Positions 735-55,367 of a stretch of DNA of 64,000 nt are shown here, piece by piece (positions within the stretch are counted from its first letter, which is position 1; every line of letters begins with the position of its first letter). The notes under the pieces are model-generated. The model was not told where the DNA came from. It did no database searches and worked only from the letters and a program-made list of their open reading frames with translations. Source of the DNA: an uncultured virus (IMG/VR IMGVR_UViG_3300027907_000553) (lineage: Duplodnaviria; Heunggongvirae; Uroviricota; Caudoviricetes); the IMG/VR virus record IMGVR_UViG_3300027907_000553. One strand, 5' to 3'. The translations under genes and the position numbers were made by a program.

Positions 735-1139
735 ATTCCTACTCAAGCAATTGCCGCAACAGGCATAGTCCTCAACATGGCGGGGACCCCTGTCCCCGAA
801 GTCACCAACCTGTCGGAAGTCGGTGCCCAGTTCAATGTGGTCGATGTCAGTGCGCATGATGGTGGGAATTGGGCGAGTAAGATTCCTACCCTGCTCGATG
901 GTGGCACGATCCGCGTGTCCGCGAACTTTGTGCCCGCCAATGCGCAACATGTGGCCCTGCGGACGGCGATGATTAACCGCGTTTCTACCGCGTTTACTGT
1001 CCGGTTCCCGAATGTCGGCGCCACGACCTGGAGTTTTAATGCGTTCGTGACGCGCTACCGCATTCCGTCCGCGCCGGTCAATGGCGCGCTGCCGCTCGAA
1101 TTTGAACTGACTGTAGATGGGGCTATTACTTTTGCATGA
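735..1139 (+). CDS. Second tail tube paralog, probable ATT start
   Basis: VPEVTNLS..VDVSAHDGGNWASKIPTL is paralogous to 57..713; in-frame extension from ATT at 735 gives IPTQAIAATGIVL, matching MPTQARSAFGIAL; SD-like AAGGG at 723-727. Confidence 0.7.
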   Translation: MPTQAIAATGIVLNMAGTPVPEVTNLSEVGAQFNVVDVSAHDGGNWASKIPTLLDGGTIRVSANFVPANAQHVALRTAMINRVSTAFTVRFPNVGATTWSFNAFVTRYRIPSAPVNGALPLEFELTVDGAITFA

Positions 1140-1582
1140 GCATGACCATTACGATTGAGACGATTCACATTGACCAGGTGGTCATGACGGCCCCGGCCGC
1201 GCCCAGTCTCCGCTGGCATGTCGGGCCGGTGCAGACCACCACAGGAGGCAGCATGCCGATTGAAGTGACCCTCACGACCGAAGAGAAATGCCGACTCGCC
1301 ATTGCGCCGCTGACGGCCGGGGGCGCTCCCGCGCAGGTGGACGGGGAGGCGCAGTGGAGCGTCGAGGGGACCTGTACGATCGAGCCCATTGATGCCACGA
1401 GTGCGTGGGTGGTCGCAGGCGCCATGGGCGATAGTACGGTGAGCGTCGGCGTGGATGCCGACCTCGGCGCCGGCGTCGTCCCCATTGGCGACACCGCGCT
1501 CATCCATGTGAACAACCCCGAGGCGGCCAGTGTGGGCCTTGCGGCCGATGCGCCAGTGCTCAAAACCGAGGAGCCGGTCTAA
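1136..1582 (+). CDS. Hypothetical virion protein, possibly Ig-like
   Basis: ATGA overlap with the previous gene; beta-rich acidic composition. Confidence 0.5.
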   Translation: MSMTITIETIHIDQVVMTAPAAPSLRWHVGPVQTTTGGSMPIEVTLTTEEKCRLAIAPLTAGGAPAQVDGEAQWSVEGTCTIEPIDATSAWVVAGAMGDSTVSVGVDADLGAGVVPIGDTALIHVNNPEAASVGLAADAPVLKTEEPV

Positions 1583-1613
1583 TGCCCTCCATTGTGGCCC
1601 TCGTGCCTGTTGA

Positions 1614-1678
1614 GCCGCAGCTCACCGGAGCAAGCCGCAGCCCGACTTGGCACAAGGGAATGTAGCCTGGCTTAGAGT
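1614..1678 (-). ncRNA. Pentamer-periodic array C, putative guide RNA
   Basis: + strand units gccgc agctc accgg agcaa gccgc agccc gactt ggcac aaggg aatgt agcct ggctt agagt, at and just after the Cas7-like stop codon. Confidence 0.55.
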
Positions 1679-2238
1679 TTATGCATCGTGAACCGCCCAT
1701 ATTCGGGCCGTTCTTCCAAGATGCCAATACTCGTCCCGGCAATGACAACCAACTCATCCACTTCGCCGGGATTCAACAGCTCGTCGTTAAAGGCGAGTTG
1801 GATTTGCGTACTCCAGGGAAAGAAGATCGGACGAGTACGCAGTACGCGTTGGCCGCGCATACTCTTCGTCGTGCGATAGATAAAGTCGGCATCTTGGTAC
1901 AGCGTCTGCGGATCAGAGGGACCATCGTAGAGAAGTGTGGCGTGTTCTTCAGCCACAAGGCCCGGTTTCACCTTGGGGCCTTTTTTGAGAGTCATCGCTG
2001 CACGCAGGAGTGTAGCTTTGATCGCTTCGCGCGGAATGCACGGTTGGCCATTGTGCAGATAAAGGCTGCCCAGCCATTCCAGGTGTCCGATTTCTTCGTG
2101 ATCGGCTTCCGTCTTCTTGCGTTTGTCCGTGATCTTTTTGATAGCTTTGGTCCATTGATTGAGCGGATCGGACAATTGCCCATTGTGCATCAAGAGTGGG
2201 GCCACGCCTTCGAGATGGTATTTCGCAGTCTGTTTCAC
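1672..2238 (-). CDS. Solo Cas7/RAMP-like RNA-binding protein (188 aa)
   Basis: N-terminal YHLEGVAPLLMHN, central IPREAIKATL, RTRPIF..W, C-terminal G-rich loop AGTSIGILEERPEYGRF; GTG start at 2238 with SD AGGAG. Confidence 0.7.
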   Translation of the reverse strand: MKQTAKYHLEGVAPLLMHNGQLSDPLNQWTKAIKKITDKRKKTEADHEEIGHLEWLGSLYLHNGQPCIPREAIKATLLRAAMTLKKGPKVKPGLVAEEHATLLYDGPSDPQTLYQDADFIYRTTKSMRGQRVLRTRPIFFPWSTQIQLAFNDELLNPGEVDELVVIAGTSIGILEERPEYGRFTMHKL

Positions 2239-2548
2239 AAGCAATCTCCTGATAGGAGGAGCCAAACATATGCACAACATGAGGCGGTGCCACCTCTTGC
2301 ACAGGTGGTAACTCCCTCGTTGTGTAGCGGAGACGACGTTGGTGATCCGTCACAAGGTCATGACAGGGGACACAGAGCGTTGTTAGGTCGTTTAGCTCCT
2401 CCTTTCCGAAGCGTTCATAGGTGCGGTGATGGGCTTGTAATGTCTCATCGCTATTACAGAGACGGCAGCGGTAATTATCACGGGCAAGGCACTGCGCACG
2501 AATAGTCCGCCAATAGGGGCTGGCATAGTGGGATTCATCATAGAGCAT
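1949..2548 (-). CDS. HNH endonuclease; the ORF tail overlaps the Cas7-like gene
   Basis: RDNYRCRLC..LQAHHRTY..DLTTLCVPCH. Confidence 0.8.
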   Translation of the reverse strand: MLYDESHYASPYWRTIRAQCLARDNYRCRLCNSDETLQAHHRTYERFGKEELNDLTTLCVPCHDLVTDHQRRLRYTTRELPPVQEVAPPHVVHMFGSSYQEIACETDCEIPSRRRGPTLDAQWAIVRSAQSMDQSYQKDHGQTQEDGSRSRRNRTPGMAGQPLSAQWPTVHSARSDQSYTPACSDDSQKRPQGETGPCG

Positions 2549-2550
2549 AA

Positions 2551-2780
2551 AATGTACCTAAACAAAGCAGAGCACGACTTAGTGAAGCCTAGCGTAGCGG
2601 GACCGAACGCATAAGGGCATAGCATAACCAAGCTCAGCATAACACAACGGAGCTGAACCAAGCTTTACACAACAGAGGCAACCGGAGCACAACGCAGCCA
2701 AGCTGAACGCATCACAGAGTAGCGCATCGAAGCCTAGCAGATCGCAGCGCAACGGAGCCTAACCTAACAGGGCAAAGCCT
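2551..2780 (-). ncRNA. Pentamer-periodic array B (46 units), putative guide RNA(s)
   Basis: Continuous 5-nt phase; + strand mostly A(G/A)C-NN, i.e. NN-GYT on the transcribed strand; a few degenerate units. Confidence 0.8.
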
Positions 2781-2809
2781 AAAATCTATAAGCTGGCGGC
2801 GACACAAGG

Positions 2810-2919
2810 AGCATAGCCTGGCCTAGCGAAACAAAACGAAACCTAACAGAGCAAAGCTTGTCAGAGCTTAACGTAGCAAAACATACCAGAGCGTACCCTG
2901 GCTTAGATAACCCAAGCGG
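2810..2919 (-). ncRNA. Pentamer-periodic array A (22 units), putative guide RNA
   Basis: agcat agcct ggcct agcga aacaa aacga aacct aacag agcaa agctt gtcag agctt aacgt agcaa aacat accag agcgt accct ggctt agata accca agcgg. Confidence 0.85.
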
Positions 2920-2928
2920 GGGTTGAGC

Positions 2929-3066
2929 CTACGCATCTTTATGCTGTTCTAAATAGGCATCTATGACCCTCCGCAACATCTCAGAAAAGGAAAGGCCGTG
3001 TCGTTTGGCCAGAGTCGTCAGTGCCTGAAATTGTGGAAGACTTAGCATGACGGTTATACGCTTCAT
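2929..3066 (-). CDS. Ribbon-helix-helix (CopG/Arc-like) regulator, 45 aa, absent from the ORF track
   Basis: Hand translation: MKRITVMLSLPQFQALTTLAKRHGLSFSEMLRRVIDAYLEQHKDA. Confidence 0.8.
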   Translation of the reverse strand: MKRITVMLSLPQFQALTTLAKRHGLSFSEMLRRVIDAYLEQHKDA

Positions 3067-3074
3067 AGGCATTT

Positions 3075-3103
3075 ATTATACTGACATCATATGTATGATG
3101 CAA
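3075..3103 (-). promoter_or_regulatory. sigma70 promoter with an overlapping palindromic operator
   Basis: TTGCAT-17 nt-TATAAT on the minus strand; inverted repeat CATCATA-tg-TATGATG at 3085-3100. Confidence 0.8.
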
Positions 3104-3119
3104 GCATAGAAAGTATTGT

Positions 3120-3590
3120 ATGCCTTCGATCATTCCGTTGGTAGATGTCACGCTCGATAAGCCCCGGCATCTACTCTTTACGAGGGCGGCGGTCAAGAAC
3201 ATTGAGTTGGCCCTCACACGGATCTGGGGCCGCGACTACACGTTTTTTGAGGCCGTGCGGCGGCTCAGTGAAATGTTGTTGGATAATGATCTAAGTAAAC
3301 TAAGTTATATTAATATTGCCGTCCTGCTCCACCAAGGCTGCCTGCATGAGGACCCCGCGTTGACGCTCACGCAAGTGGAAGAGTCCTTGCCCTATGCGGA
3401 CCCCACGGGACTCATCCCCTATGTCGGGCTCATCCTCCAAGCCTGGAGCCATGCGAGCCCGCAAGTGGTCGTGGAGGCCGTCACGGCTGAGGCGACAGAC
3501 AGCGACCCTTTGGCCGAATCGACTGGGGCAAGCTCTGGGCCTTTGAACGGACCTGCCTTGGTGTCAGCGACGGCGAGTTCTGGCGCATGA
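3120..3590 (+). CDS. Tail assembly chaperone (lambda gpG-like)
   Basis: Between tail tube and tape measure genes; slippery site near the 3' end. Confidence 0.75.
   Translation: MPSIIPLVDVTLDKPRHLLFTRAAVKNIELALTRIWGRDYTFFEAVRRLSEMLLDNDLSKLSYINIAVLLHQGCLHEDPALTLTQVEESLPYADPTGLIPYVGLILQAWSHASPQVVVEAVTAEATDSDPLAESTGASSGPLNGPALVSATASSGA
3506..3512 (+). other. -1 programmed ribosomal frameshift site C CCT TTG
   Basis: XXXYYYZ heptamer in the correct frame; the -1 frame is open (GRIDWGKLWAFERTCLGVSDGEFWRMT) into ORF 3587..3865. Confidence 0.8.
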
Positions 3591-3865
3591 CGTTTCTCGA
3601 AGGGCACCTGCTGGCCGAGGCGTACTGGCGGCAACAGCAGCGGCAGGTGCGACCGATGGCGATGCTCCTGCAAGCGTATTGGAACGTGCACCGGGATACG
3701 GATCAGCGCCGCGAGCCGTTTACGCTCGAGGACATGCTGGCGGTCTTAGGGTATCCCGAACCACCCGCGCCGCCTCCCCCGCCTCCTCGGTTGGAGGAGA
3801 TCGAGGAGCGGATCGGGATACTGCATAGCTTGTATACCGCGAATGGGGAGAGAAAGGCTGATTAG
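3512..3865 (+). CDS. gpT-like frameshift extension of the tail chaperone
   Basis: LGVSDGEFWRMT motif typical of G-T extensions. Confidence 0.7.
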   Translation, partial: GRIDWGKLWAFERTCLGVSDGEFWRMTFLEGHLLAEAYWRQQQRQVRPMAMLLQAYWNVHRDTDQRREPFTLEDMLAVLGYPEPPAPPPPPPRLEEIEERIGILHSLYTANGERKAD

Positions 3866-4803
3866 CCAGGAATCAGCAACAACGGTTGCACAGGTTTTAG
3901 TACGGTTCTGTTGCCCTTGGTCGAATTACAGGATTGGCAGGCCGGTACTATGTTGCTGGCGGTATGGTTGCCGCCTTTTGAAATTGGTGTGAGATGGTCC
4001 ATAGTCAAGCGTTTCATCTTGCGTCCGCAATACACACAGCGATGGCCATAATGCTGTTTCATAGCTTCCCATTGCGCACGGGTAAAGTCATTAATTGCGG
4101 TAGCAGCTTTGCGTACTCGATATCTTTCTTGATTTATCTGACGAACTTCAGGATGCGTTTGATTCCAGGCACGGTCATAGCCAGGATGGTTTTGTCGAAA
4201 ACGACGCTGGGTTTCCTTCGTCGTATCGGGATTCTCTGCGCGGTATTGACGTGCTCGTGCATTGATAGTGTCACGATGTTTCGCGTGATGGGCTCTCGCC
4301 TCTTGGCGCGCTTTTTCTGGGTCTTGCGCATAGCGAGCAGCGCTATAGGCACGTCCTTGGGCACGCAACTCTTCTCGATGCGTTTCTCGATACTTCGCTT
4401 TGATTGCCCGTATGTCGTCTGGATGTGTTTCCGCCCAGGCACGATTTGCCGCATCGCGTGCTTCTTTATGCTTTTGATACGACTGCCGATGTTGTTCCTG
4501 TATTTTTTCACGGTTGGCTTGATAAGCAGCATTGCGTTTCAAGCGGATTTCTTCACGATTGGCAGCCCACCACTCACGGTGCTTGGCGCTCCTTTCTTCC
4601 TTATGGGCATCTCGGTATTCCTTGGCTTGTGCAAGAAGGGCTTCTCGGTTGGCCGCATAGTAGCGTGCATCGTTTGCGCGGATCGTTTCCTTATGCGCGT
4701 CACGATAGGCTTTGCTCTGCGCCGCATGGTCACGTGCCCATTGGCGTTGATACTGTCGATGAGCTTCCAGTTGTTCAGGGGTCTTCGGACGTTTCGATGG
4801 CAT
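3862..4803 (-). CDS. HNH endonuclease with a long repetitive helical N-terminus
   Basis: CVYCG..LTMDHLTPISKGGNHTASNIVPACQSCNSTK; GGAGGT SD before ATG 4803. Confidence 0.9.
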   Translation of the reverse strand: MPSKRPKTPEQLEAHRQYQRQWARDHAAQSKAYRDAHKETIRANDARYYAANREALLAQAKEYRDAHKEERSAKHREWWAANREEIRLKRNAAYQANREKIQEQHRQSYQKHKEARDAANRAWAETHPDDIRAIKAKYRETHREELRAQGRAYSAARYAQDPEKARQEARAHHAKHRDTINARARQYRAENPDTTKETQRRFRQNHPGYDRAWNQTHPEVRQINQERYRVRKAATAINDFTRAQWEAMKQHYGHRCVYCGRKMKRLTMDHLTPISKGGNHTASNIVPACQSCNSTKGNRTVLKPVQPLLLIPG

Positions 4804-4932
4804 GAGACCAACCTCCGGTTGTTGGTTCCGGTGCGATGGATACGGCAACTCGCCGGAAACGAGCTTCTCGGGTTGCAATCCCTAGCCGTACCCCCTGAGT
4901 ATAGCAGAAAAGTGGGAAGGATAGCGATTTAA

Positions 4933-7900
4933 ATGGCAGAGCTATTAGTCGGTGATGTAGTAGCCCGATTAAGACTAGATGCCAGCGGCTTTGACCAGGC
5001 GCTGACGCAGGCTCAGCAGCGTCTCACGCAACTCGCGCAGACCATGGGCCAGGTGCGTCAGCAACAGGCGAGCAGCCAGCAAGCGACGCAGCAACACGTC
5101 CAGGCGCTCCAGCAACTCACGCAAGCCGTCCAGCAACAGGCCCAAGCGGTCCAACAACAGAGCCAGGCGTCATCGCAGGCGGGCCAAGCGACACGCCAGC
5201 AGGCGCAAGCCCTCCAGCAACTCACGCAAGCCGTCCAGCAACAGGCCCAGGCCGTTCGCCAACAAGCCCAAGCTTTCCAGCAGCAAGCGCAAGCCTTTAC
5301 GCAGGCCCAACAGGCGACCCAGCAACTGACGCAGCGCCAGGCCCAACTTGCCAGTCAGGTGCAGCAGACCACTACGGCCGCGCAGGCTTCTGGGAGTGCC
5401 TTGCAGACGGCCCTCAGTGTGGCCGGCGGCATCGGCATTGCCACGAGTTTGGGCGCGATCGTCAGCCAACTCAAAGAATTTGCCGTCAGTGCGATCGATG
5501 TCGCCACTCGCATGCAATCCCTGCGTGCCTCGCTTGCCGCCTTGGGTGGAGGCATTGGTGCGGGGCAACAACAATTTGCCCAACTCTTTCAAACGGCACA
5601 GGCCCTCGGCGTCGCCTTTGAACCACTCGCCCGCGGCTGGCGGCAACTGACGGCCGCCGCCACCCAGGCCAATTTGCCCCTGGAAGATCAACGGCGGTTA
5701 CTGACTGCCGTCTCGAACGAAGCGCGGCGCGTCGGCGCGAGCAATGACGAACTGGGCCGGATCATTACGGCGCTCGCTCAGACGGCCAGTAAGGGCGTCG
5801 TGTCGATGGAAGAGCTCCGCCAGCAACTCGGCGAAGCGCTGCCTACGGCTCTGGCAGCCCTGGCCCGAGGCATGGGCTATACGACGGAACAGGTGACCAA
5901 GCTGGTGGAAACGGGCACCCTGCGCTTTGTGCCCTTTGCCCTGGCCTTTACGCGCGGCTTAGAAGACATGCAGGCGGCGAGTGGCAAGATGGCCGATGGG
6001 GCGCAGCAAGCGTTTAATCGGCTCGGGAACGCACTCATTGCCTTTAAAGATGCTCTGGGGGCCAATGTCCTGCCCGAACTTGAACGCCTCGCCAAGATTG
6101 CTACCGGCATTCTCGATACGGCGACGGCGCTCCTTGCGCTGGCGGGCGGGCGCCGTGACACCCGCCTCGCTCCCAATATGGCACAAGAAATTGCCGGCAC
6201 GCCGGATCAAGAGCGTGAGGTGCAACGCCTGCGCGGCGTGATTGCGCGGTTAGAGCAGCAAGCGGCCACGGCGGTCCCCGGACCACTGCGTGAGCAGCGC
6301 GAGGGGATGGTTCAGCGGGCCAAGGAAGAGCTCGACACCCTCCTCGAAGTGATCCAAGGGACAAAGAACGAGACTGCTGAACAACAAAAACTCACCGAAG
6401 AGGCGAACCGGACTAAATCTGCCCGCGAGCAGGAGGCGGCGTTCCTTCAGACGATTACGCGGCAACTGGAAGAGGTTCGGAAGAAAGAGGCCGACCTTGC
6501 CGAATCTTCCCGAAAAGCCCCCAATGTCTTTGGGAGTCCGACTGGCACGCCGGAACAACAGGCCGAGTTTGCCAAGCGCCGTCAACAGTTGCTCGAACAG
6601 GAAACTGAGAAACTCACAGCGACGCTCAACCTCCGGCCCGCCAATGTCACACTGACCCCAGCTATTCAGGAACAACTAAAAAATCTGGGGCTCCTCGATC
6701 AGGCCTACGCCAAGGCCGCGCAGACGGTGGATCGCCTCAAGGAGGCGGAGCAAGCGCGTGCCCGTGCGGCGCGTGAACTGGAAGCGCAGCGGGAGCGCGT
6801 GCCCGCTCAGGTCAGTGCGCTGCAAGCCTTTGAAGAACGCCTCGGGGCCTTTGTGCGCCGGCCCACGGAGAACCTGGCGGAAGAGGCCGCCAGTCGGGTA
6901 CGTGTGGCGGGCGCCGCCATGCAAAAGGAACTCGATACCCAGATTCGCACCTTTGAAACTTCGAAGCCCCTGCAGGCGGCAGACCCTGCCGCCTTAGCGC
7001 GGTTGCGCGGTCAGCGCGACGCCCTTACCCAGGCGACCGATGTCCAAGCGCAGGAAGCCTATACCACCGCCCTGGCCAAGCAGATGAGTACGCTTAACGA
7101 TCTCGCCCGCTCGTATGGCTTTGTGACCAAGGAAGCCAGTGATCTCGCCCGTGCCGAAGAAGAAGCCGCTCGGTTTGCCGGGACGCCCCTCCAGGCACAG
7201 GCGGAGGAGCGGCTCCAGGTAGTTCGCGATGTGGCGACGATCGAAGCCCAGATCGTGGATTTAAAGCGGCAGGCCGCTGCCAGTGAACGGGCAGGACTGG
7301 AGGCCATGAAAGAGGCCAGAGCCAGTACGGCCTTTGACGTGACGCTGACCGAGCAACTGGAGCGGTTGCGTGCACCCCGTGAGGAACGCCCGGAACTGCG
7401 CTTGCGCGAACAAGCGCGGCGGCAAGGCGTAGAGGTGACCCCCGAGCGCGAAGCGCGCCTCCAAGCCATTACCGCGCAAGTGCGCTTTAACGAGATCATG
7501 CAAGCCACCGAGCGCATTGGCGATGCTGCCGCACAGACGCTCACCCAGGGCCTCCAAAGCATTATTGATGGCACACAACGCGTGAGCGATGCCTTCCGGC
7601 TCATGGCCAAGAGTATTCTCGATTCAGTCGCCCAGATTGCCCTCAACGAGGGCTTTCGCACGCTGATTCGGCTCGGCATTACGGCGATTGGCGCGGTCTT
7701 TGCCCCAGGGGTGACCGGCGGGGTCACGGGGGGGGCGACGACCGGGTCCATTGCGGCCGGTGTCGGGGGCAATTGGAGCGGCAGCGGATTGCAACACGGG
7801 GGCATCATTAATAAGCCCACGATGATCCTTGCGGGTGAAAATCCAGCGATGAATCCTGAATACGTCTTGAATCGGCCCCAGATGCAAGCGCTGATGAGTG

Positions 7901-24946: not shown

Positions 24947-25540
24947 CTAGAGTCGAGTGGGATCATCACAGCGTTGCCCCCGAATAATTTTGCGAATAGT
25001 CTGTGGTGTTACTTGATAGTGCTCAGCAAGCACCCTAGGTGTTGTCCCGGCATAAAAGGCAGCTTTGATAGCTGCAAAATACTCAGGGGGTACTTTCATA
25101 ACGTTGTCACGTCGTCTCATAATGACAGCATCCTGCACGTTTTGTTGTTGTGTCCCCGCGTAAAGGTGACGGACACAATGCCGCAAGAGACACGGTGGGG
25201 TATGCAAGACACGCAATCCCTTGTCAGGGGGTCCATGCGTAACCGTATACGCAAAGACATGGGCGTAGAACCTCTTCTGGTCAACACTAAACATGCCATA
25301 TCTTGTGGCAACATTCCGTGTTCCCGTCCATGGCCAGCAGCGATTTTCCCAGTCATGGCACGTACAGGCAGTCTCTTTGTCTACGGAGCGCCAGAAACGC
25401 TCCAGCACGGTCATGCCTCTATGCAGAGCACAGGGATGGCACCAGCCTGTTTTTGTTTGGTTGGGATGTTTAGTCGTGACGAAGGCCTGCTGACATGCTG
25501 TACAAACACGGTGATATTGCCTACGCTTACTCGTAGCCAT
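24947..25540 (-). CDS. HNH homing-type endonuclease
   Basis: ERFWRSVD..CWPWTG..YAHVFAY..VLH..CVRHLYAGTQQQNVQD. Confidence 0.85.
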   Translation of the reverse strand: MATSKRRQYHRVCTACQQAFVTTKHPNQTKTGWCHPCALHRGMTVLERFWRSVDKETACTCHDWENRCWPWTGTRNVATRYGMFSVDQKRFYAHVFAYTVTHGPPDKGLRVLHTPPCLLRHCVRHLYAGTQQQNVQDAVIMRRRDNVMKVPPEYFAAIKAAFYAGTTPRVLAEHYQVTPQTIRKIIRGQRCDDPTRL

Positions 25541-25567
25541 GGCGTCGTGTCCTTTCCACATGACGAG

Positions 25568-25633
25568 GTGGTCAGAGCCCTGTTGGTGTCTCAAGCACTG
25601 GCAGGGCTTGTTTTTTGTCCCTCTAGTATAGCA
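25568..25633 (-). promoter_or_regulatory. Extended -10 element plus hairpin leader upstream of HNH, copy 1
   Basis: GTGGTCAGAGCCCT..GGTGT..AAGCACTG..AGGGCTTGTTTT..AGTATAGCA, shared with 27127-27190. Confidence 0.65.
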
Positions 25634-53107: not shown

Positions 53108-53527
53108 TCATGCCTGTCTCCTGGTGAGGAGGGCCTGGATCGTGGCCCAGTCCTCAGGGCGATAGACGCCTGTCTCGATATGGGTCACCTGGGCGAGGGC
53201 GTCGAGCCAGCGCCGTTGTGCGGGGCTTACCTGGCCCGCCGCACTTTTATATTCCCACAGATAGAGCGGCCCGCCGTCTGGATGCACCAGCACGTCATCC
53301 GGGAAGCCTGGGGCACTGCGGCGACTGCCCTTCCCCTGTGTGTGGTAGCGGAGCCACCCCGTCGCCGCCGCAACCACCTGCACGCGGCTTTCCAGCGCCG
53401 CCTCAGAGCTCCTGGGGTCCATGCCGCTTGCCGGCGGGCGCACGGTCAGCGCGGGGTCGAGGGCTAACCCGTGACGCTGTGCGTGGTCAATGGCGTCGGC
53501 TTCCGTCCAGCGATCACGCTGACGCAT
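53108..53527 (-). CDS. VRR-NUC-like PD-(D/E)xK nuclease
   Basis: GFPDDVLV..WEYKSAAGQVSPAQRRWLDAL. Confidence 0.8.
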   Translation of the reverse strand: MRQRDRWTEADAIDHAQRHGLALDPALTVRPPASGMDPRSSEAALESRVQVVAAATGWLRYHTQGKGSRRSAPGFPDDVLVHPDGGPLYLWEYKSAAGQVSPAQRRWLDALAQVTHIETGVYRPEDWATIQALLTRRQA

Positions 53528-54560
53528 GGGGCTCTCCTTGTTTCTCCACCGTGCTGTTCAAGATGTGCCACGCCAAGACGGCGGTTTGTGGACACCATCC
53601 ATTGCCTAACGCACGCAGACGGGACACACGGTCGGCGACACCTGACGCCACACGCGGTACGTCTGCAGGTTCAGTGGTCCACCAACTGTCCATCCCAGGG
53701 GCCAATTCATCAGCCATTCTACCCACGTCGGATTTAACTGCCCGCCTATCTGCTCGCTCAAGGGGCGACTGTTCCGGTCGTGGGTCGCGGGGCTGGCCTT
53801 GACGGAGCGCCAGTCGCGGGAGGTCTGGGTCGCCAGCCGTACCGCCTGCTCCAGCACCAATTGCACCTTCTTGCCCTTGTGGTAAAAGCTGTTTCCCTCC
53901 TGCTCGGCATGCCAGGTGGTGCGGCCCCCGTTCGGGACATTGGGCGTCGGCCACAGCTCCTGCCGCGCCATCGTCTCTAGGGACGGACGGATCTTGCCGA
54001 CTCTCCCCGCCGCTCCGCCCTGATTCGTTCCGTAGCTGATCGCGGCTGGGGTCGGTAGCCAGTATCCAGAGCCGTTTGCGGAGATGGGGCGCTCCGACGT
54101 CATCAGCCCCCAGACAGCACCAGCGTGCATCCATCCCCAGCGCGGCAAGGTCACTAAGCACGCGGTCGAGGCCTCGAACAACAAGCCCTGGAACGTTCTC
54201 AATAAAGACGTAGCGGGGTCGTATCTCCCCAATAAGACGGGCGAACTCTGTCCATAAACCTGAGCGTGCGCCCGTAATGCCGGCTCGCTTCCCGGCGGTG
54301 GAGATGTCCTGGCAGGGGAACCCCCCACTGACGACATCGACACGTCCCCGCCAGGGTTTCCCGTCAAAGGTGGTAACGTCATCCCAGACGGGAAACCAGG
54401 GGAGGAGACCGTCTGTCTGTCGCTGGATGAGGACGCGCTGGCAGTAGGGGTCGATCTCGACGGCACAGACGGGTCTGTGTCCGAGAATGAGGTCGGTAAG
54501 GAGGCTTCCGCCAGCGCCTGCAAATAGATGGAGAGTTCTAAGGGGGTGCAATTGATCCAT
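53514..54560 (-). CDS. C5 cytosine methyltransferase
   Basis: LFAGAGG, GGFPCQDIS, ENVPGL, HLRKRLW, RLRALGNG. Confidence 0.93.
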   Translation of the reverse strand: MDQLHPLRTLHLFAGAGGSLLTDLILGHRPVCAVEIDPYCQRVLIQRQTDGLLPWFPVWDDVTTFDGKPWRGRVDVVSGGFPCQDISTAGKRAGITGARSGLWTEFARLIGEIRPRYVFIENVPGLVVRGLDRVLSDLAALGMDARWCCLGADDVGAPHLRKRLWILATDPSRDQLRNESGRSGGESRQDPSVPRDDGAAGAVADAQCPERGPHHLACRAGGKQLLPQGQEGAIGAGAGGTAGDPDLPRLALRQGQPRDPRPEQSPLERADRRAVKSDVGRMADELAPGMDSWWTTEPADVPRVASGVADRVSRLRALGNGWCPQTAVLAWHILNSTVEKQGEPHASA

Positions 54561-54586
54561 GTCACGTCGCAACCTTTCTCTCTCAC
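53606..54586 (-). CDS. Overlapping alternative-frame ORF supplying TRD/motif IX of the C5 MTase
   Basis: WLPTP, LWPTP, LNPTWVEWLMNWPLGWT. Confidence 0.65.
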   Translation of the reverse strand: MREKGCDVTWINCTPLELSIYLQALAEASLPTSFSDTDPSVPSRSTPTASASSSSDRQTVSSPGFPSGMTLPPLTGNPGGDVSMSSVGGSPARTSPPPGSEPALRAHAQVYGQSSPVLLGRYDPATSLLRTFQGLLFEASTACLVTLPRWGWMHAGAVWGLMTSERPISANGSGYWLPTPAAISYGTNQGGAAGRVGKIRPSLETMARQELWPTPNVPNGGRTTWHAEQEGNSFYHKGKKVQLVLEQAVRLATQTSRDWRSVKASPATHDRNSRPLSEQIGGQLNPTWVEWLMNWPLGWTVGGPLNLQTYRVWRQVSPTVCPVCVR

Positions 54587-55367
54587 AGTAAGGGGAATGC
54601 TCGGGGCGGGCTAGGCACGGGGACATCCTAGCCCGCGGGGTTCTGGGAGACAAGCCCAAACACGGGCGTCAGTCTGTTGTCCTTATGTGCGCGCTGTCAA
54701 AGCTGCCTCGGTTGCCGTTGCGCAATTCGCAGTCCCAGGCCTCTAAGGTGTCCTGGGTCGCATATTGGATCAGCCAGAGCGCCCTCGCCTTATACCAACG
54801 CTTGCGTGCGGTGTCATATACTTCAATCTCGTCTCCTGCCTTGTAGGCGGTCTGGGTTTCCATCTGCTCCCTTTCCTGCGTGGTGCAACTCGTGTTGTCC
54901 ATCGTCGTTTCTCCTGCGTGGTAACGTGCGTAGCGCAGGCTCGCCCCTTACAGGAAGCGCCCGCAGCAGAGAATCGCTAACAGCGCGGCGCCGCCTGCCA
55001 GGGCTACCCCGCCCATGCCATAGTGTCTATGCTGAAAATCCATGAGTGCGCTCGCCCAGAATCCACAGGCGGTGACCACCATCACGAACGTAAAAATGAC
55101 GCGTTGTCCCTCGGTCACAGCGGGGCCTCCTGCGATGCGGTGCATGAGGACCGCCTCGCGCGGGCGCGAATGGCGGCAATCAGGTGTGTATACGCCTCGG
55201 CCAGGTCTGCCGTGGGCGGCAGAGGCAGACGCGTCACGAGGCCGTCCGATGCGACATGCGCCACCCGGTACAGGCCCTGGTCCTGGAGGAGGCACAACCG
55301 GCTGCCATCGGGCGCAGCGGTAGTTGTGAGGACGTGCAGGGTGAGGGGCATAGGAAGTCTCTCCTTG

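Follow-up and report, generated by a model that had tools for sequence, protein, structure and literature searches.

The locus lies in a 64,000-nucleotide stretch of an uncultured virus (IMG/VR record IMGVR_UViG_3300027907_000553), hereafter called the window. Its first 15 kb form the plus-strand tail module of a siphovirus-like phage, with two tail-tube-like genes, a chaperone pair, a tape measure gene and a J-like fibre gene; the terminase, portal and head genes are found at 58–64 kb. The tail module holds a small cassette in which a gene for an HNH nuclease overlaps the gene of a guide-RNA-binding protein. The features of the region, in positions of the window, are the following.

1582..1615, plus strand: remains of the chaperone gene's original 5' end, 34 nt outside the cassette, from alignment
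about 1602..1671, minus strand: array C, a degenerate pentamer tract abutting the vipr stop codon downstream
1616..3151, no strand: whole cassette, a 1,536-bp insertion relative to related phages
1672..2238, minus strand: vipr gene (RAMP/Cas7-like guide-RNA-binding protein), 188 aa, GTG start
1949..2548, minus strand: HNH nuclease gene (vipr-accessory gene), 199 aa, ATG start at 2548
about 2297-2533, minus strand: part coding for the HNH domain, about aa 6-84
2554..2778, minus strand: vrRNA array B, 45 pentamer units G-Y-T-N-N, just upstream of the HNH start
2808..2922, minus strand: vrRNA array A, a guide of 23 pentamer units directed at the tail assembly chaperone gene
2929..3072, minus strand: ribbon-helix-helix (CopG/Arc-like) gene, 47 aa, Pfam RHH_1 E 3.7e-05
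3077..3108, no strand: inverted repeat between the ribbon-helix-helix and chaperone genes, candidate operator
3120..3590, plus strand: tail assembly chaperone-like gene, its first 32 nt (3120-3151) a recoded copy within the cassette
3270..3337, minus strand: guide A target site under the one-base-skip rule, within the chaperone gene, the skipped base being codon position 3
3862-4878, strand not given: second HNH gene, free-standing, 338 aa, a separate indel among relatives
24947-25594, strand not given: third HNH gene, free-standing

The limits of the cassette were defined by comparison with related phages. Positions 1615 and 3152 are adjacent in seven cassette-free loci (L206, L207 and L209–L213), and the flanks share ~82–86% nucleotide identity with related phages. 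The insertion breaks the chaperone gene at about codon 12. To the left of the cassette is a 148-aa gene ending at 1582, and downstream of the chaperone gene an ORF at 3587–3865 has a weak match to Phage_tail_T. What is present or absent at this one site is the whole cassette and not the HNH gene alone; 12 cassette-free loci were compared for the guide analysis described below. The left flank is 85.7% identical to L206 and 74.2% to L212, the right flank 81.9% and 86.6%, respectively. Since the two flanks are closest to different relatives, the pattern fits recombination at the insertion spot. Rhizosphere metagenome runs have contigs that carry the cassette. In run X9 a contig connects 1613 directly with 3152 (shorter side 28 nt, aligned at 80% similarity), a weak sign that cassette-bearing and cassette-free forms occur together. 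The nearest record, G001, is without this region. The ribbon-helix-helix gene is the third cassette gene in this subclade; of the 13 subclade loci that could be evaluated 10 have it upstream, and no locus outside the subclade has it. The inverted repeat beside it may serve as an operator.

The gene overlapped by the HNH ORF had been called Cas7-like in an earlier note made from the sequence alone. Its most likely start is GTG at 2238, which is preceded by AGGAG. A profile of 58 relatives matched PDB 36pp_D, "SUSP1 Vipr protein", with an E-value of 2.1e-46, and the 188-aa protein by itself matched the same entry over residues 9–185 (E 5.1e-21); PHROG 4652 matched the protein with E 4e-41. The AF2 model has a pLDDT of 96.9, and Csm3/Cas7 chains were its best Foldseek matches. 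The label Cas7-like is correct at the level of the fold, but the proper name is Vipr: judged by sequence and profile similarity, the product is Vipr, a minimal RAMP, and the system is VIPR. A CRISPR-Cas identity was considered and rejected, as the locus has no spacer-type repeats and the Vipr gene matched no Cas family in PADLOC or NCBIfam; searches for long direct repeats and for cas genes were negative. An IscB/OMEGA identity was also rejected, the NCBIfam IscB model covering the HNH part alone (34.9 bits against a cut-off of 175). Rfam, searched at E-values up to 1, matched no family.

VIPR systems were first described in preprints of 2026 (PMC13142463 = bioRxiv 10.64898/2026.04.26.720920), so the system is already known. 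According to the accessible text of the VIPR preprints, Vipr protomers line up along a guide RNA made of GGY-NN pentamers, in which the GGY bases are shielded by Vipr and the NN bases pair with DNA, so that the pairing passes over every third base of the target; vipr has an accessory gene (vap) next to it. Seven types are distinguished, some with predicted nucleases or helicases, and an HNH domain is named among the Vap proteins of types II, III and VII (PMC13142463, legend of Fig. S21). In the same accessible text, published VIPR activity to date is silencing, target destruction is predicted for the nuclease-bearing types (PMC13142463), and the preprints themselves pose the role of nuclease-type accessory genes as a question.

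The two genes are flanked by pentamer tracts. The autocorrelation of the pentamer tract is 0.47 at lag 5 versus about 0.22 at other lags. The periodicity behind what the earlier note called arrays is real, but these are repeats of VIPR guide RNA (vrRNA) rather than CRISPR arrays. The ATG of the HNH gene, placed by that note 3 nt from the end of array B, is indeed close to it, with a gap of 5 nt (the last G.T unit ends at 2554). In relatives, arrays begin at the same point after vipr as array C. Tandem Repeats Finder returned nothing between 1500 and 3200 because the pentamer units are too degenerate. A terminator scan found one stem only, inside array A, and a sigma-70 promoter scan found no sites. 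Hairpin tails after the arrays are plain in the GGY relatives L021 and L024; by eye, neither a hairpin nor a pseudoknot tail was seen after the arrays of the window.

The repeat unit departs from the canonical one. The cluster of the window has 62 G-Y-T-N-N units on the vipr strand and none on the opposite strand, with no canonical GGYNN unit. In all other clusters the arrays are made of GGY-NN units, which occur on the vipr strand and not once on the opposite one; pentamer arrays were on the vipr strand in every array-bearing locus bar one inverted upstream array (L123). The G-Y-T-N-N unit is also carried by metagenome relatives at 48–99% identity, and all nine distinct subclade Viprs with scored arrays are GYT. 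The accessible text of the preprints permits "a related consensus" beside GGY and reports the non-canonical units NNNGG, YNNNG and NNNNG (PMC13142463) and the fixed trinucleotides GAC, CAC, WGT and TGH (10.64898/2026.10.21.760802). As words, GYT, GCT and GTT are missing from the accessible text of the latter, whose figures may list them.

A change in Vipr accompanies the change in the unit. According to the accessible text of the cryo-EM preprint (10.64898/2026.04.26.720927), SUSP1 Vipr reads the first G with H17 and D177, reads the second G with R138 and by stacking on W178, and holds the pyrimidine in a pocket that includes R179. These residues (H17, D177, R138, W178, R179) align with H18, E175, R136, E176 and R177 of the window's Vipr, in which H18, R136 and R177 are thus retained, D177 is replaced by E175 and W178 by E176. 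The lost tryptophan is the one that stacks on the base changed from G to pyrimidine, and from this alignment the substitution is consistent with the change at the second base. Where the G-loop could be read, distinct Viprs with an aromatic residue at this place had GGY arrays in 102 cases and GYT arrays in none, and those without one had GYT arrays in nine cases and a GGY array in one; the 30 other Viprs had no array or a mixed one. All nine GYT Viprs fall in one clade (SH-aLRT 98) and therefore count as one evolutionary event, not nine.

The HNH ORF runs from its ATG at 2548 to 1949, as the earlier note had it. The N-terminal HNH domain that the note placed in about the first 75 aa was borne out at aa 6–84 by PHROG and by our own HMM. 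PHROG 589 matched the protein with E 3e-12 and the HMM, built from relatives, with E 1.1e-27; the Pfam HNH match (E 0.0064, 17.1 bits) is under the cut-off of 21.4. In an alignment of 45 diverse relatives, C28, H40, H41, Y44, C59, C62 and H63 are invariant and C31 is kept in at least 90%. The catalytic core is intact, as it would also be in a free-standing homing endonuclease. The closest solved HNH domains are those of IscB, the Cas5-HNH type I-E Cascade and phage GVE2. An AlphaFold model built on the 45 relatives is confident at aa 1–88; aa 90–199 have a pLDDT of about 50–60 and no secondary structure, and this tail is predicted to be disordered. Pfam, NCBIfam and PADLOC detected no second domain in the 199-aa protein, and neither the domain searches nor the AlphaFold model revealed a DNA-recognition module of its own. 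A folded core of ~88 aa that has no DNA-binding module is consistent with a nuclease to which a partner supplies the address.

To see how regularly the two genes occur together, a check that the earlier note had proposed, we gathered 202 loci encoding relatives of the window's Vipr via peptide patterns from Vipr's own family, and scored every frame of these loci with an HNH profile made from the first matches. Grouped at 90% identity, the first 122 loci yielded 74 clusters, 72 of them with upstream sequence long enough to be evaluated. HNH lies immediately upstream of vipr on the same strand in 60 of these 72 clusters, a fraction that describes this clade and not all VIPR systems, since the loci were gathered by own-family peptide patterns. 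Of 112 non-redundant Viprs placed in a quick maximum-likelihood tree, 95 have HNH directly upstream, and all 95 are inside one clade of 100 rows, with weak support (SH-aLRT 81). SUSP2, MakoManhole, LittleE and Medea1, the four inspected among 130 Vipr-matching phage records, belong to a different Vipr clade (SH-aLRT 97) and have a downstream vap1-like gene and no HNH, in contrast to the upstream, overlapping HNH gene found here. HNH keeps its adjacency to vipr, its strand, its frame relation and its overlap even where Vipr identity falls to 32–48%, and does so in unrelated genomic contexts. We conclude that HNH is a regular partner of VIPR in this clade. The rare linkage in homologues that the earlier note named in its refuting condition is not what these loci show.

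The overlap is itself a conserved feature. The last 290 nt of the HNH ORF overlap vipr in another frame because vipr most likely begins at GTG 2238, in agreement with the roughly 290 nt of out-of-frame overlap noted earlier. Of 130 distinct HNH ORFs, 125 extend into vipr; the overlap has a median length of 127 nt (289–290 nt in the window and its 73–74% relatives), and the frame relation is +2 in all HNH-bearing loci compared except L081. In the HNH frame, a T-ending vipr codon followed by a codon that begins with GA, AA or AG produces a stop. At sites of this kind T was present in 22 of 523 cases within vipr codons 1–35 and in 474 of 1846 in the remainder of the gene (Fisher p 4e-33). Stop-creating codons are thus depleted in the overlap, and the open HNH frame is kept by selection. 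A programmed frameshift fusing HNH to Vipr was considered as the cause of the overlap and rejected, because vipr has its own ribosome-binding site and start inside the HNH ORF; the vipr frame is also closed 1–10 codons upstream of the start in many loci.

We then searched for the targets of the guides. Array A was read as NNx, with two variable bases per unit and one target base skipped, which gives 46 informative bases. In this reading its target is at 3270–3337, 119–186 bp beyond the end of the cassette at 3151. The match some 170 bp outside the cassette to which the earlier note referred is therefore real, in the one-base-skip reading only: with a skip of 0 or 2 the score is 25/46, and a skip of 3 finds only the array itself. 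The six cassette-bearing copies (the window and five others) score 36/46, and the maximum over 500 shuffles of unit order, scored against four phage genomes, was 31/46. The match is far beyond chance, and since the array has a period of 5 nt and the target one of 3 nt, ordinary sequence similarity cannot explain it. It is also independent of which strand is transcribed.

The comparison with cassette-free relatives, also suggested in the earlier note, revealed that most of them match guide A better than the phage itself does. The score was 40/46 in six of the 12 cassette-free loci, 39/46 in three and 35/46 in three, that is, better than the self match in 9 of 12 and slightly worse in 3 of 12. 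The resident allele matches at 78%, just below the 80% threshold of the discovery preprint; with the resident allele still matched to this extent, self-immunity is not evident.

For arrays B and C no convincing target was found in the window or in the records of three relatives, the best scores over 12-unit windows (20/24 and 18/24) being at or just over the shuffle maxima. When 158 guides from 83 loci were tested against their own flanks, only the window's cluster and a second subclade lineage, L134/L135, stood out. In the latter, the guide matches a gene flanking the cassette at 28/38, with a null maximum of 25. Own-flank matches of L026, L096 and L059 were rejected, as they failed at full length. 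L242 has a relative of the L135 flank gene at 57% identity, too distant for the guide test. With two flank-directed lineages among 158 guides, this is not a general trait of the sampled HNH-type VIPR loci.

We propose that an HNH-type VIPR system resides on the 1.5-kb cassette of a siphovirus-like rhizosphere phage and that HNH serves it as a dedicated accessory nuclease. A Vipr filament assembled on guide A would be directed to the chaperone allele of a cassette-free sibling and, at the guide A site, would recruit or activate HNH, which would cut the DNA of the co-infecting sibling. Either the sibling would then be excluded, or repair on the cassette-bearing genome would copy the cassette into it. 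Cutting followed by repair copying is the logic of homing endonuclease genes, and a cut made less than 200 bp from the insertion point and repaired on a cassette-bearing genome would indeed copy the cassette. We consider the first element of this proposal, that HNH is a dedicated VIPR accessory nuclease, to be likely. For guide-dependent cutting by HNH our confidence is modest, and we lean towards it. The further step, that the cassette is an RNA-guided homing element in which the guide directs a cut and repair copies the cassette together with its resistant chaperone allele, is one that we put forward tentatively.

The earlier note had left the choice between a recruited effector and an independent passenger. 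Phage structural modules often contain HNH homing genes, and this phage has two more free-standing HNH genes, at 3862–4878 (an indel among relatives; a related copy sits elsewhere in some relatives) and at 24947–25594, so that a homing endonuclease that merely sits beside vipr could be imagined here. Both genes, however, are larger than the HNH gene of the cassette and belong to other PHROG families, and the cassette protein lacks the DNA-recognition domain that would give it an address, according to domain searches and the AlphaFold model. Above all, a passenger is at odds with an adjacency, strand, frame and overlap kept to 32–48% Vipr identity in unrelated contexts. With HNH linked to vipr in 60 of 72 clusters and 95 of 112 Viprs, we reject the passenger reading, which we regard as highly improbable; the linkage supports a dedicated VIPR partner, for which cutting, recruitment and homing would be the activities that we infer. 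Such a partner could also act without cutting its target, as a silencing helper like SUSP1 Vap1, or could act on the guide RNA or on the DNA of the phage itself. The accessible text of the preprints lends this some credit: SUSP1 Vap1 is needed for protection and is a predicted DNA-binding protein (10.64898/2026.10.15.759431; PMC13142463), and the VIPR activity published so far is silencing, not cutting. We nevertheless find a non-cutting role unlikely, given that in 45 diverse relatives the residues for metal binding and catalysis vary hardly or not at all and that, in its accessible text, the discovery preprint predicts target destruction for nuclease-bearing types (PMC13142463). Were the sibling's chaperone silenced, moreover, the chaperone of the cassette-bearing phage would stand in for it in trans, so that silencing would bring no selective edge, whereas cutting the sibling's DNA would bring a gain.

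If HNH does cut under guide control, the cassette could still be an RNA-guided weapon against sibling phages only, with the closeness of target and insertion site a by-product and no homing. This is a serious possibility, though short of probable. Published VIPR guides are mostly aimed at competing phages and satellites (PMC13142463, accessible text). Flank-directed guides were found in two lineages only, and arrays B and C point elsewhere. The position of the target, less than 200 bp from the insertion, and the presence in the cassette of a recoded start of the target gene speak for homing instead, as a target near the insertion and a recoded copy of the target gene are hallmarks of homing elements such as the seg and mob genes of T-even phages. 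The left and right flanks of the cassette, nearest to different relatives, also fit recombination.

Among the closest described systems is the VIPR of SUSP1 and Pseudomonas fulva (type II, PMC13142463). In its accessible description it shares with the present system a homologous Vipr, arrays flanking vipr on both sides, two-base reading with a one-base skip, carriage by phages and guides against competing elements. It differs from ours in its GGY-NN unit, here G-Y-U-N-N, in the clade of its Vipr and in the hairpin or pseudoknot tail, which was not seen by eye after the window's arrays. The nuclease-bearing types III and V (PMC13142463) likewise combine Vipr with a predicted nuclease as accessory, but are described in the accessible text as belonging to cell defence islands and host immunity, whereas the present system lies in a phage tail module and its relatives are mostly on viral contigs. 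The non-canonical motifs of 10.64898/2026.10.21.760802 resemble ours, as far as its accessible text goes, in that they are linked to Vipr, have a 5-nt period and fix a trinucleotide that is not GGY.

Outside VIPR, the Cas5-HNH type I-E Cascade (PDB 8yha, 8yb6) is the best fold match of the window's HNH and among its best profile matches. It too is a RAMP-based RNA-guided complex, in which HNH replaces Cas3. There, however, HNH is fused to Cas5 and works with a CRISPR RNA and contiguous pairing; here a separate small HNH occurs without cas genes or CRISPR repeats. A further parallel concerns the cassette as a mobile unit. Phages carry free-standing homing endonuclease genes, and IscB and TnpB provide RNA-guided transposon retention. 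The cassette resembles these in its presence or absence at a fixed site, in a target within ~200 bp and in a resident allele that differs; it departs from them in that specificity would come from a separate RNA-protein filament and that there is no transposase.

The VIPR system and the existence of HNH-type accessory proteins are already in print. In the accessible text of three VIPR preprints (PMC13142463, 10.64898/2026.10.15.759431 and 10.64898/2026.04.26.720927) the terms "homing" and "gene drive" are absent, and no text combining "vrRNA" and "homing" was found in the literature searched. Neither a flank-directed guide with a homing reading nor a 1,536-bp cassette insertion absent from close relatives was found in the accessible preprint texts. 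The same is true of the conserved HNH–vipr overlap and of the GYU unit with its G-loop change, on both of which supplementary data and figures may bear, as they may on the assignment of this system to a type.

The paired change of GGY to GYU and of D-W to E-E offers a lead on how the grip of Vipr on the fixed bases may be re-specified. The locus as a whole is a natural test case, combining a small HNH without a targeting domain, a guide with an identified target, both sensitive and resident alleles of that target, and cassette-bearing and cassette-free phages that may share the same rhizosphere data sets. Should HNH cut under the control of the guide, target destruction by a VIPR system would be shown, and the pair would form a very small programmable nuclease, made of a protein of about 190 aa and a folded core of about 90 aa. 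If the homing reading is also true, an RNA-guided route would be added to the ways in which phage cassettes spread. The guide array would then be both the weapon and the address label of a selfish cassette, for which new insertion sites would be reachable by altering two bases per repeat unit.

Beyond the HNH gene of the VIPR cassette, the window carries two more.

3862-4878, minus strand: second HNH gene, encoding 338 aa (Pfam HNH, E 2.3e-13)
24947-25594, minus strand: third HNH gene, for an endonuclease of PHROG 826 (E 1.3e-16)
57-713 and 777-1139, plus strand: two neighbouring tail-tube-like genes

The 338-aa gene is an indel separate from the cassette: L206, a cassette-free relative, joins window position 3846 directly to 4934, and one contig from the public sequencing run X7 connects position 3857 to 4934. 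In the cassette-free relatives L209-L213, an insert of about 860 bp that holds an HNH copy lies between the tail-tube genes, and this copy is related to the 338-aa gene (about 70% over 171 nt). The third HNH gene is encoded on the strand opposite to its adjoining genes. Array B matches it at 19 of 24 positions inside the gene, which is not beyond the shuffle range.

Under the one-base-skip rule, units 9-20 of the same array also match a site directly after a methyltransferase gene.

53514-54659: C5 cytosine methyltransferase gene
54708-54743, plus strand: array B match (20/24)

Since this score exceeds the shuffle maximum of 19 by a single position, we claim no target there.

Among the three arrays, a 15-nt motif, GTAGCCTGGCTTAGA, or a variant of it, is repeated at array starts or ends; it may mark vrRNA boundaries, replacing the hairpin tails of GGY-type relatives.

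1662-1676, 2813-2827 and 2893-2907, plus strand: 15-nt motif and variants

As for array orientation, in L123, a 73% relative, the array upstream of the HNH gene (about 480-340 nt before vipr) is on the opposite strand and appears as NNARC when read along the strand of vipr, which also carries the downstream array.

A further candidate element, a possible operator of the RHH protein, lies between two divergent genes.

3077-3108: near-perfect inverted repeat, TATACTGACATCATA / TATGATGCAAGCATA, with the RHH gene on one side and the chaperone gene on the other

Three relatives forming a small clade (L041, L060 and L085) lack the HNH gene and have another conserved gene next to vipr, whose products have a '...LTDAEAS...' stretch in common. 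This gene lies upstream in the first two and downstream in L085; it may represent a different accessory family. Array units also vary: three metagenome loci (L168, L144 and L154) have GAC-NN or G[AG]C-NN units, in agreement with the naming of GAC as a non-canonical unit in 10.64898/2026.10.21.760802, and the Viprs beside these arrays retain the D-W-R G-loop.
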